From Escherichia coli (GTDB lineage: Bacteria > Pseudomonadota > Gammaproteobacteria > Enterobacterales > Enterobacteriaceae), in the NCBI RefSeq assembly GCF_003334305.1, contig NZ_QOWS01000037.1: a stretch of DNA of 24,028 nt; one strand, written 5' to 3'. Both the position numbers and the translations under genes were made by a program. Of the stretch, positions 4,122 to 5,081 are shown piece after piece. How positions within the stretch are numbered: position 1 is the first letter of the stretch; each line of letters opens with the position of its first letter. The notes beneath the pieces are model-generated. The model was not told the DNA's origin, did not search any database, and saw only the letters and a program-made list of their open reading frames with translations.

Positions 4122-5081
4122 GTGGCACAACGAGATTATGTACGCCGCAGCCAACCGGCACCTTCGCGGCGAAAAAAGAGCACCTCACGGAAAAAGCAAC
4201 GAAATCTGCCTGCGGTTTCTCCCGCTATGGTCGCTATTGCTGCCGCCGTTCTTGTGACCTTTATCGGTGGTCTGTACTTCATTACGCATCACAAGAAAGA
4301 AGAGTCCGAGACGCTGCAAAGCCAGAAAGTGACCGGTAACGGACTACCACCAAAACCAGAAGAACGCTGGCGCTACATTAAAGAGCTGGAAAGTCGCCAG
4401 CCGGGTGTGCGTGCGCCCACAGAACCTTCTGCCGGTGGTGAAGTGAAAACGCCGGAGCAACTGACACCAGAACAACGTCAGCTTCTTGAACAAATGCAGG
4501 CTGATATGCGCCAGCAGCCAACGCAGCTGGTTGAAGTTCCGTGGAATGAACAGACGCCGGAACAGCGTCAGCAAACGCTACAACGCCAGCGTCAGGCGCA
4601 GCAATTAGCGGAGCAGCAACGCCTGGCTCAGCAGTCGCGTACGACTGAACAAAGCTGGCAGCAGCAGACGCGTACGTCGCAAGCCGCGCCGGTACAGGCG
4701 CAACCGCGCCAGTCTAAACCGGCTTCTACTCAGCAGCCGTACCAGGATCTGCTGCAAACCCCTGCGCACACGACCGCGCAGTCGAAGCCGCAGCAAGCTG
4801 CGCCGGTTGCTCGTGCCGCTGACGCGCCAAAACCGACGGCGGAGAAAAAAGACGAACGCCGCTGGATGGTGCAGTGCGGTTCGTTCAGAGGCGCGGAACA
4901 GGCAGAGACGGTACGTGCTCAGCTGGCGTTCGAAGGATTTGACTCGAAAATCACCACCAACAATGGCTGGAATCGTGTGGTCATTGGCCCGGTGAAAGGC
5001 AAAGAGAACGCAGACAGCACCCTCAATCGGTTGAAGATGGCGGGTCATACAAACTGCATTCGGCTCGCCGCCGGGGGTTGA
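4122..5081 (+). CDS. ftsN: Cell division protein FtsN
   Basis: 319 aa, GTG start, MAQRDYVRRSQPAPSRRKKSTSRKKQRN..., single TM helix, long Q/E/R/P-rich linker, C-terminal SPOR domain (RWMVQCGSFRGAEQAETVRAQLAFEGF...). Confidence 0.96.
   Translation: MAQRDYVRRSQPAPSRRKKSTSRKKQRNLPAVSPAMVAIAAAVLVTFIGGLYFITHHKKEESETLQSQKVTGNGLPPKPEERWRYIKELESRQPGVRAPTEPSAGGEVKTPEQLTPEQRQLLEQMQADMRQQPTQLVEVPWNEQTPEQRQQTLQRQRQAQQLAEQQRLAQQSRTTEQSWQQQTRTSQAAPVQAQPRQSKPASTQQPYQDLLQTPAHTTAQSKPQQAAPVARAADAPKPTAEKKDERRWMVQCGSFRGAEQAETVRAQLAFEGFDSKITTNNGWNRVVIGPVKGKENADSTLNRLKMAGHTNCIRLAAGG

Follow-up and report, generated by a model that had tools for sequence, protein, structure and literature searches.

In-frame length variants of the FtsN linker in Escherichia coli are rare and map largely to short direct repeats

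The window analysed here is a stretch of 24,028 nucleotides of Escherichia coli DNA (RefSeq assembly GCF_003334305.1, contig NZ_QOWS01000037.1), and our subject is the cell division protein FtsN that it encodes and, in particular, natural variation in the length of the FtsN linker. The ftsN coding sequence (CDS) occupies nt 4122-5081 on the plus strand, as do all features described below unless otherwise stated. It is an open reading frame of 960 nt with a GTG start that specifies 319 amino acids (aa) and a stop codon, with cytR on one side and hslV on the other. Its identity was established from the reading frame, from E. coli annotation and from matches to NCBIfam models at the equivalog level, i.e., NF008179 'cell division protein FtsN' (707 bits, cut-off 525) and TIGR02223 (388.6 bits, cut-off 107.65). 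The sole Pfam domain was a C-terminal SPOR domain (PF05036, aa 246-313, E = 3.7e-17). The gene is annotated in 5,426 of 5,426 complete E. coli genomes, in many of them with 100% identity to the ftsN of the window, and the exact FtsN protein of the window was found on at least 1,000 contigs. The window and K-12 genes differ by 11 single-nucleotide polymorphisms (SNPs) in 960 nt, which cause few amino-acid substitutions, and the gene and its architecture are the same as those described for K-12 FtsN, with no structural difference (PMC7939390; bioRxiv 2024.05.13.594014).

A basic cytoplasmic tail (aa 1-30; 23% R, 13% K) is predicted to lead into a single transmembrane helix, modelled by AlphaFold2 (AF2) at aa 34-56 with predicted local distance difference test (pLDDT) scores of 81-93. 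The essential domain (aa 75-93, nt 4344-4400; limits from PMC7939390) is marked by residues P76, P79, W83, Y85 and L89, which are unchanged across 31 homologues; W83, Y85 and L89 belong to the periplasmic essential motif. The SPOR domain (aa 243-319, nt 4848-5078), which contains the PF05036 match, was predicted by AF2 with pLDDT >90. In the published map, FtsN has helices H1-H3, with helix H3 at aa 117-123, a Q-rich linker at ~129-225 and SPOR at 243-319 (PMC7939390). The linker region is called unstructured both there and in bioRxiv 2024.05.13.594014, the latter describing a long linker that measures ~70 nm at full extension and allows SPOR to search for denuded glycans. The linker and SPOR were reported to be dispensable for FtsW activation (bioRxiv 2026.02.13.705525). 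FtsN is built from a membrane-proximal essential domain, bound to FtsWI-FtsQLB, that is joined by a Gln-rich tether (aa 157-240) to SPOR, bound to the denuded glycans of septal peptidoglycan. To the K-12 map we add natural length alleles, together with the finding that aa 113-156 are conserved whereas aa 157-240 are not.

A sequence-only reading of the locus had singled out nt 4440-4760 as a low-complexity, repetitive linker built of TPEQRQ-like units, whose repeats could make linker length vary between strains. This interval encodes aa 107-213, in which Q accounts for 33 of 107 residues (31%), T for 11, and E, P, L and R for 9 each. Over aa 124-242 Gln makes up 28% of residues, the compositional bias that is typical of a disordered linker. 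The peptide and repeated units reported in that reading are present exactly: TPEQ occurs three times, beginning at nt 4449, 4464 and 4554, and TPEQRQ twice. The first TPEQ (4449-4460), a Leu codon and the first full TPEQRQ (copy 2, 4464-4481) together span nt 4449-4481, and copy 3, the second full TPEQRQ, lies at nt 4554-4571. The reported near-repeat in the DNA also exists, with 20 of 24 positions identical between nt 4459-4482 and 4549-4572, and 10 of 11 between nt 4449-4459 and 4554-4564. The former pair forms the left and right arms, 90 nt apart, of a 24-nt imperfect direct repeat that is the substrate of +30 and -30 aa variants. The TPEQ and TPEQRQ copies are dispersed, however, 15 and 90 nt apart, and Tandem Repeats Finder detected no tandem array in nt 4100-5100 at a minimum score of 30. 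In codon shuffles of the region (n=2,000), a repeated 6-mer peptide was marginal (P ~0.02-0.03), and there was no excess over expectation of in-frame direct repeats of >=7 nt (13 observed) or >=8 nt (5 observed; P 0.22-0.36). The counts are nevertheless far higher than elsewhere in ftsN, where repeats of >=7 nt numbered 0 in aa 1-106 and 0 in SPOR. Given that their counts lie within the shuffled expectation, the direct repeats of the linker are a by-product of its very narrow codon vocabulary. The Q-rich repetitive stretch is real but modest.

The term low-complexity linker proved apt for aa 157-240, but not for aa 113-156, a conserved block that holds both TPEQRQ copies. This block (nt 4458-4589; QLTxEQRQLLxQMQADMRQQPTQLxEVPWNEQTxEQRQQTLQRQ) includes helix 3 as well as the third copy of the repeat, and was almost invariant and free of indels in 14 Escherichia, Citrobacter, Salmonella and Enterobacter proteins. 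The motif LTxEQRQLLEQxQADMRQxPTxLxEVPxN was conserved across 31 homologues of 31-95% identity; even down to ~31% identity, L114 and L122 were invariant and E117, Q118, Q124 and D128 nearly so. AF2 predicted a helix at aa 116-129 (pLDDT ~79-85). When the Lutkenhaus laboratory modelled the complex with AF2, residues 117-123 of helix 3, an accessory helix, were placed on FtsI, and a triple mutant of the conserved residues among them had no more than a mild defect in a sensitised background. Most indels between genera fell in a hypervariable, Q-rich core (aa 157-204, nt 4590-4733), the remaining linker indels in a variable tail (aa 218-240), and none in aa 113-156. An alignment of Enterobacteriaceae FtsN also revealed a conserved island inside the linker, QQPYQDLLQTPAHT (aa 204-217, nt 4731-4772), which is common to Escherichia, Citrobacter, Salmonella and Enterobacter amid variable sequence, and for which we came across no described function. 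The poor conservation characteristic of disordered linkers was accordingly seen for aa 157-204 and 218-240, but not for aa 107-156 and 204-217. Two Salmonella FtsN sequences had a 3-aa insertion in the cytoplasmic tail. Within the part that the literature calls unstructured, AF2 unexpectedly predicted one long helix at aa 146-187 (nt 4557-4682), with pLDDT ~92 at aa 151-170, and gave a pLDDT of ~50 for aa 188-246.

Length variants were sought in a collection of 15 billion proteins, in which the dominant FtsN cluster (319 aa) contained 4,156 different sequences. Beside it stood a tail of FtsN proteins of 270-349 aa from E. coli and Shigella, which yielded 16 length variants ranging from -49 to +30 aa, each of them an in-frame deletion or duplication within aa 115-235. 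The longest, from S. flexneri (protein P0001, contig L008), carries a 30-aa duplication between the two TPEQRQ copies, and its reciprocal, a 30-aa deletion, was found in P0009 (contig L009), P0011 and P0016. Two additional 11-aa units lengthen P0002 by 22 aa, and one such unit is lost from P0128. The other deletions removed 18 aa (P0004), 25 aa (P0006-P0008, of which P0006 is the FtsN of enteropathogenic E. coli (EPEC) strain E2348/69), 27 aa (P0005), 34 aa (P0010 and P0013, two separate events), 38 aa (P0020 and P0023, the former on 18 contigs) and 49 aa (P0038). Most variants are known from one or two assemblies, and this holds also for those that remove part of aa 113-156, the E2348/69 lineage excepted. 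Deletions under ~9 aa and novel insertions would be hidden inside the 90% protein cluster. Truncated or apparently frameshifted FtsN-like proteins (P0136-P0169) were considered as out-of-frame events and rejected; they are contig-end fragments or chimeras and are therefore uninformative on this point. In P0147, P0156 and P0169 the FtsN N-terminus (to ~aa 131-150) is joined to unrelated proteins (sigma-factor-like, periplasmic binding and CytR-like); these are probably assembly chimeras whose break falls in low-complexity sequence.

When the breakpoints inferred from the proteins were projected on the window DNA, four deletion classes coincided with perfect direct repeats of 8 nt (GCGCCGGT, CGCGTACG, CTCAGCAG and CAGGCGCA) and three with repeats of 7 nt (CGCCAGC, CAGCAGC and, for the -30 aa class at its protein-inferred site, CGTCAGC). 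The two copies of GCGCCGGT, at nt 4686-4693 and 4800-4807, bound the 114-nt (38 aa) deletion, and those of CGCCAGC, at nt 4509-4515 and 4584-4590, the 75-nt deletion (aa 132-156) of EPEC O127:H6. From protein sequence only, the 34-aa deletion of P0010 was assigned to CAGGCGCA (4593-4600 and 4695-4702), the second 34-aa deletion, in P0013, to CTCAGCAG (4627-4634 and 4729-4736), and the 49-aa deletion of P0038 to CAGCAGC (4512-4518 and 4659-4665). Within aa 107-243, 8,085 distinct deletions that remove 11-49 aa in frame are possible. Microhomology of >=7 nt is available to only 13 of them (0.16%), and yet natural variants include 7 of these 13, among which are 4 of the 5 with 8 nt. By our own estimate from a simple binomial, the probability of such a result under a uniform null is of the order of 1e-14 or less. 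Breakpoints thus lie in perfect direct repeats beyond chance, as slipped misalignment predicts. Reciprocal products, which the same process should generate, were also present, i.e., deletion, duplication and triplication of the 11-aa unit at one repeat pair (del11, dup11 and a triplication) and deletion and duplication of 30 aa (del30 and dup30) at another. All variant breakpoints fell at or beyond nt 4459; aa 1-114, with the essential domain, and SPOR were spared by every natural length variant.

The variants del11, dup11, del25, dup30 and del38 were verified at the DNA level. The CDS measured 885 nt in E2348/69, 993 nt in the avian pathogenic E. coli (APEC) strain E18005 and 927 nt in three del11 strains, and in alignments of the E2348/69, del11 and dup11 alleles the gaps fell at the predicted repeats. 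In the S. flexneri dup30 allele, two identical 90-nt units meet at a junction within CGTCAGC, and the triplication allele (contig L010) consists of three exact 33-nt units. The del38 DNA matched the predicted product and occurred on two SNP backgrounds (contigs L011 and L012). The dup30, triplication and del38 alleles, like del30, were known from such contigs and were absent from the complete genomes. Amongst the del30 and dup30 alleles formed between the TPEQRQ copies, at least three different crossover points were found.

The sequence-only reading had looked to the TPEQRQ pair as the source of length change. Events at that pair were limited to one or two assemblies each and were absent from complete genomes; the main hot spot is instead a 15-nt direct repeat, CAGCAG[T/A]CGCGTACG, at nt 4629-4676 (copies at 4629-4643 and 4662-4676), with 14 of 15 positions identical, 8 nt of them perfect, and a period of 33 nt. 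The 33-nt unit is flanked by CGCGTACG at 4636 and 4669, and the 11-aa unit that it encodes was present in 0, 1, 2 or 3 copies among natural alleles. This indel unit falls within the AF2-predicted helix of aa 146-187. Amongst complete genomes, del11 (CDS of 927 nt) was found in 15 and dup11 (993 nt) in 1. The del11 allele of ECCHD184 had 0 SNPs relative to K-12 W3110 over ~5 kb apart from the 33-nt gap, and RM10466 (del11) and APEC E18005 (dup11) had 0 SNPs relative to the ftsN allele of the window. A B2-type allele in 19AR1724 (del11) differed from the others by 13-18 SNPs, some of them 10-50 nt from the deletion. Given that three distinct del11 haplotypes exist, differing by 11-18 SNPs within ftsN, the 33-nt deletion arose at least three times. 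Together with del38 on its two backgrounds, this demonstrates independent recurrence. Eight of the del11 genomes, including an O113:H21 strain, have one junction haplotype.

The 75-nt in-frame deletion was present in four complete O127:H6 genomes, two of which are strain E2348/69, and on 18 contigs. It takes out the conserved PTQLxEVPWNEQTPEQRQQTLQRQ block (aa 132-156) that adjoins helix 3. E2348/69, the prototype EPEC strain, is represented by contig L002 (NC_011601.1), with ftsN at 2179-3063.

We determined how common such alleles are amongst the complete E. coli genomes. A gene of other than 960 nt was found in 39 of 5,426 (0.72%), and in the remaining 5,387 (99.3%) these searches detected no departure from 960 nt. 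Slippage-type alleles accounted for 20 genomes (the 33-nt deletion for 15 of them, the 75-nt deletion for 4 and the 33-nt duplication for 1), and a recombinant allele of 948 nt for 19, i.e., approximately half of the length-variant genomes. The slippage-type counts derive from a junction search in which 12 predicted 80-nt products were compared with the complete genomes (E <= 1e-22) and 20 genomes matched. BLAST searches with 150-nt tiles, evaluated in bands of coverage and identity, revealed no further large deletions in the complete genomes. Tile searches detect large deletions and the divergent allele, whereas tandem duplications and indels below ~9 nt are invisible to them. Even del11 was missed in most genomes because the pieces overlap via the repeat and still cover >80% of the query, and our counts therefore rest on the junction search and on exact spans in sampled rows. 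The exact length over the full linker was sampled in ~63 genomes. All 39 E. coli-type matches in a sample spread over the complete genomes were exactly 960 nt, and one divergent match was 948 nt. The 23 records of <95% identity were fully explained by the 19 genomes with the 948-nt allele and the 4 with del25. With tile 4431-4580, two complete genomes matched at 90-95% identity in a manner explained by no catalogued variant. The complete-genome search returned 5,427 ftsN matches, two of them on plasmid-labelled records, and one genome had two matches; a replicon with the wrong label, or the duplication of a segment, may explain this. The proposal that linker length varies between strains by repeat-mediated events was therefore right on process and overstated on extent. 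In-frame indels at short direct repeats do occur, including at the TPEQRQ pair, but only 0.72% of complete genomes vary; invariance across hundreds of strains had been named as the refuting outcome, and rare indels were found, yet with only a few hundred strains surveyed, the length would seem all but constant. Repeats, moreover, are the source of the slippage alleles but not of the commonest alternative length, 948 nt, which is recombinant.

This 948-nt allele (allele B) was 95-100% identical to the window up to ~nt 4569. Over nt ~4570-4800 identity fell to 51-73% with gaps, and near identity was regained after the gene. From nt 4570 to ~5760, allele B was 97-100% identical to an E. fergusonii contig (L007), and sequence comparison thus identifies it as an interspecies mosaic. 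In strain 2013C-4282 (contig L001) the E. fergusonii-like part spans ~4449-5640 and takes in the 3' half of ftsN, hslV and part of hslU. The direction of transfer is suggested by the fact that all E. fergusonii proteins retrieved carry the allele-B type of linker. Homologous recombination with another Escherichia species provides a second route to length change, in which the variable core can be swapped outright.

For the remaining alleles, the variants observed, their breakpoints, recurrence and frequency lead us to infer replication slippage coupled with a selective filter, and slipped misalignment at short direct repeats within a length-tolerant tether, filtered by selection, is in our judgement very probably the correct explanation. 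The tether is encoded by a few codons (CAG, CAA, CGT/CGC, ACG and GCG), a vocabulary that makes perfect direct repeats of 7-8 nt abundant in it, at spacings divisible by three. Such repeats may occasionally misalign during replication, by a slipped-strand process of the RecA-independent type, so that the 11-49 codons between them are lost in frame or, reciprocally, duplicated in tandem. Perfect short repeats at junctions, reciprocal products, recurrence and the concentration of events at the longest and most closely spaced repeat all point to slippage. Tolerance of length is to be expected because the linker is long (~70 nm extended) and is not required for FtsW activation; a slack tether that is not needed for the essential activation step, as the literature indicates, would render the alleles viable, with a few persisting in lineages. 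That the variants remain rare probably reflects a slight disadvantage of most of them, or just their recent origin, and this would apply most to those that lose part of the conserved aa 113-156 block. Selection appears to be visible in the sparing of the essential domain and SPOR, and in the scarcity of aa 113-156 variants.

Several observations weigh against this explanation or restrict it. Three remaining deletion classes share only 3-4 nt at their breakpoints, and del30 in contig L009 crossed over at GAC (nt 4463-4465), a perfect match of 3 nt within the 20/24 repeat; the length of microhomology is thus not the whole story. Six breakpoint assignments are protein sequences projected onto the DNA allele of the window, and replication slippage and RecA independence are themselves read from the anatomy of the breakpoints. 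The confident AF2 helix at aa 146-187 fits poorly with a purely disordered tether. Detection is also biased, with small deletions and novel insertions uncounted in the genome searches. Finally, the density of repeats is at the level set by codon composition, so that nothing suggests that they are maintained for the sake of variability.

Three other explanations were weighed. Sequencing or assembly artefacts in a linker that is truly invariant in E. coli and Shigella would account for the many variants confined to one or two draft assemblies, and obvious chimeras breaking in the linker region do exist (P0147, P0156, P0169). We consider this explanation very improbable, given that the 75-nt deletion was recovered from four independently assembled complete O127:H6 genomes and 18 contigs, and del11 from 15 complete genomes of various hosts and countries. 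Microhomologies of 7-8 nt are also far below assembler k-mers, which speaks against repeat collapse, and the same SNP was present in both copies of the 90-nt duplication. It is likewise quite unlikely, if a little less so, that ftsN is a contingency locus of the variable-number tandem repeat (VNTR) kind, in which hypervariable length would be by design and the variants would be adaptive, adjusting in particular lineages how far the tether reaches or when division occurs. Consistent with such a locus, the 11-aa unit exists in 0, 1, 2 and 3 copies, del11 arose at least three times, related genomes share variants (del25 in four O127:H6 genomes, one del11 haplotype in eight) and linker length differs widely between genera. 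Frequent length differences and a head-to-tail array, the hallmarks of such loci, were nonetheless not what we found: length changed in 39 of 5,426 complete genomes and was without detectable change in 99.3%, most variants came from one or two assemblies, and the window allele, which contains no tandem array, has only ~1.45 copies of the 33-nt unit. Repeat density equals the expectation from codon composition, FtsN is periplasmic, and no link of length to a phenotype is known.

The third explanation concerns the TPEQRQ copies themselves, which may belong to a helix-3 module that contacts FtsI and is kept by purifying selection, their likeness to one another being irrelevant to length variation. 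The near invariance of aa 113-156, indel-free in four genera and with its core motif kept to ~31% identity, is what this would predict, as are the placement of residues 117-123 on FtsI in the AF2 model and the mild defect of the triple mutant in a sensitised background; TPEQRQ-mediated variants were, in addition, absent from the 5,426 complete genomes. On the other hand, del30 and dup30 between the TPEQRQ copies do arise, with at least three crossover points, and E2348/69 is viable without aa 132-156, the third TPEQRQ included, so that the block is not essential. We regard the odds for this explanation as even. It complements slipped misalignment and does not exclude it.

Both the Q-rich linker of FtsN and the generation of deletions and duplications at short repeats are already known. 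That the linker is dispensable for the essential step is textbook knowledge in the field, and short-repeat deletion and duplication is a classic process. Slipped misalignment between short direct repeats is classically exemplified by the deletion hot spots in lacI that Farabaugh and Albertini reportedly described, and by RecA-independent rearrangements, which are said to have been reviewed by Lovett. The ftsN alleles resemble these cases in their 7-8 nt breakpoint repeats, their reciprocal products and their recurrence on different backgrounds, and in that events are commonest at the longest and most closely spaced repeat (15 nt, 33 nt apart). They differ in being standing polymorphisms of an essential gene, filtered to in-frame products. 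As in cagY of H. pylori, direct repeats in a coding region give rise to in-frame length variants; unlike cagY, with its extraordinary number of repeats, frequent rearrangement and functional consequences (PMC2194252), ftsN has short repeats at chance level and varies in <1% of genomes. No relevant report of natural length polymorphism in ftsN emerged from a literature search, the sole candidate paper being concerned with ftsK. Amongst FtsN homologues, a compositionally biased spacer of variable length precedes the conserved SPOR domain in other genera as it does in the window, with linker lengths of ~0 to 130 aa. The linker is P/T/S/A-rich in most other genera, and Q-rich in Escherichia, Citrobacter and Salmonella. 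The linker of one protein (P0172) contains five tandem units of ~17 aa (AQDQAQTPPKKTAPPAS) and that of another (P0135) long polyQ runs, and linker expansion by repeat amplification is thus visible elsewhere in the FtsN family.

Further observations were made around the gene. A promoter and terminator scan of nt 4030-5180 returned chance-level antisense matches only. The ftsN-hslV intergenic region contains, at nt 5119-5138, a perfect stem-loop, CCCCGTAC-TTTT-GTACGGGG, followed by TTTGT and situated just after a CCCCCCATCTATAAT stretch, which the terminator scan did not list. Downstream of rraA, alignment between the window (nt 8604-9100, the zapB region) and 2013C-4282 was lost, with identity of 0.2-0.4 and many gaps, and 2013C-4282 carries an annotated 'hypothetical protein' at the matching place. 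According to the annotation of strain E2865, window nt 1-76 belong to a minus-strand gene for an RHS element core protein, within the end of which the window begins. The ftsN gene of E2865 is identical to that of the window; the 24-kb region is not.

Natural E. coli and Shigella strains thus hold an allelic series of linker lengths (-49 to +30 aa), which includes the widely used EPEC strain E2348/69 with its loss of 25 aa near helix 3. Such alleles can serve as ready-made tests of tether length, or of the role of aa 113-156, in division. Pipelines for the typing or alignment of ftsN need to allow for rare indels of 33 nt and for a mosaic allele of the E. fergusonii type. It is unlikely, in our view, that linker length and the aa 113-156 block, instead of being neutral slack, act as functional settings, with some lineages having fixed variants under selection. 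If they did, the number of 11-residue units (0-3) and, in EPEC O127:H6, the missing PTQLxEVPWN/TPEQRQQTLQRQ block would affect how far from the FtsWI-bound essential domain, or how stiffly, SPOR is held, and the timing of constriction or the robustness of the septum would change in turn.

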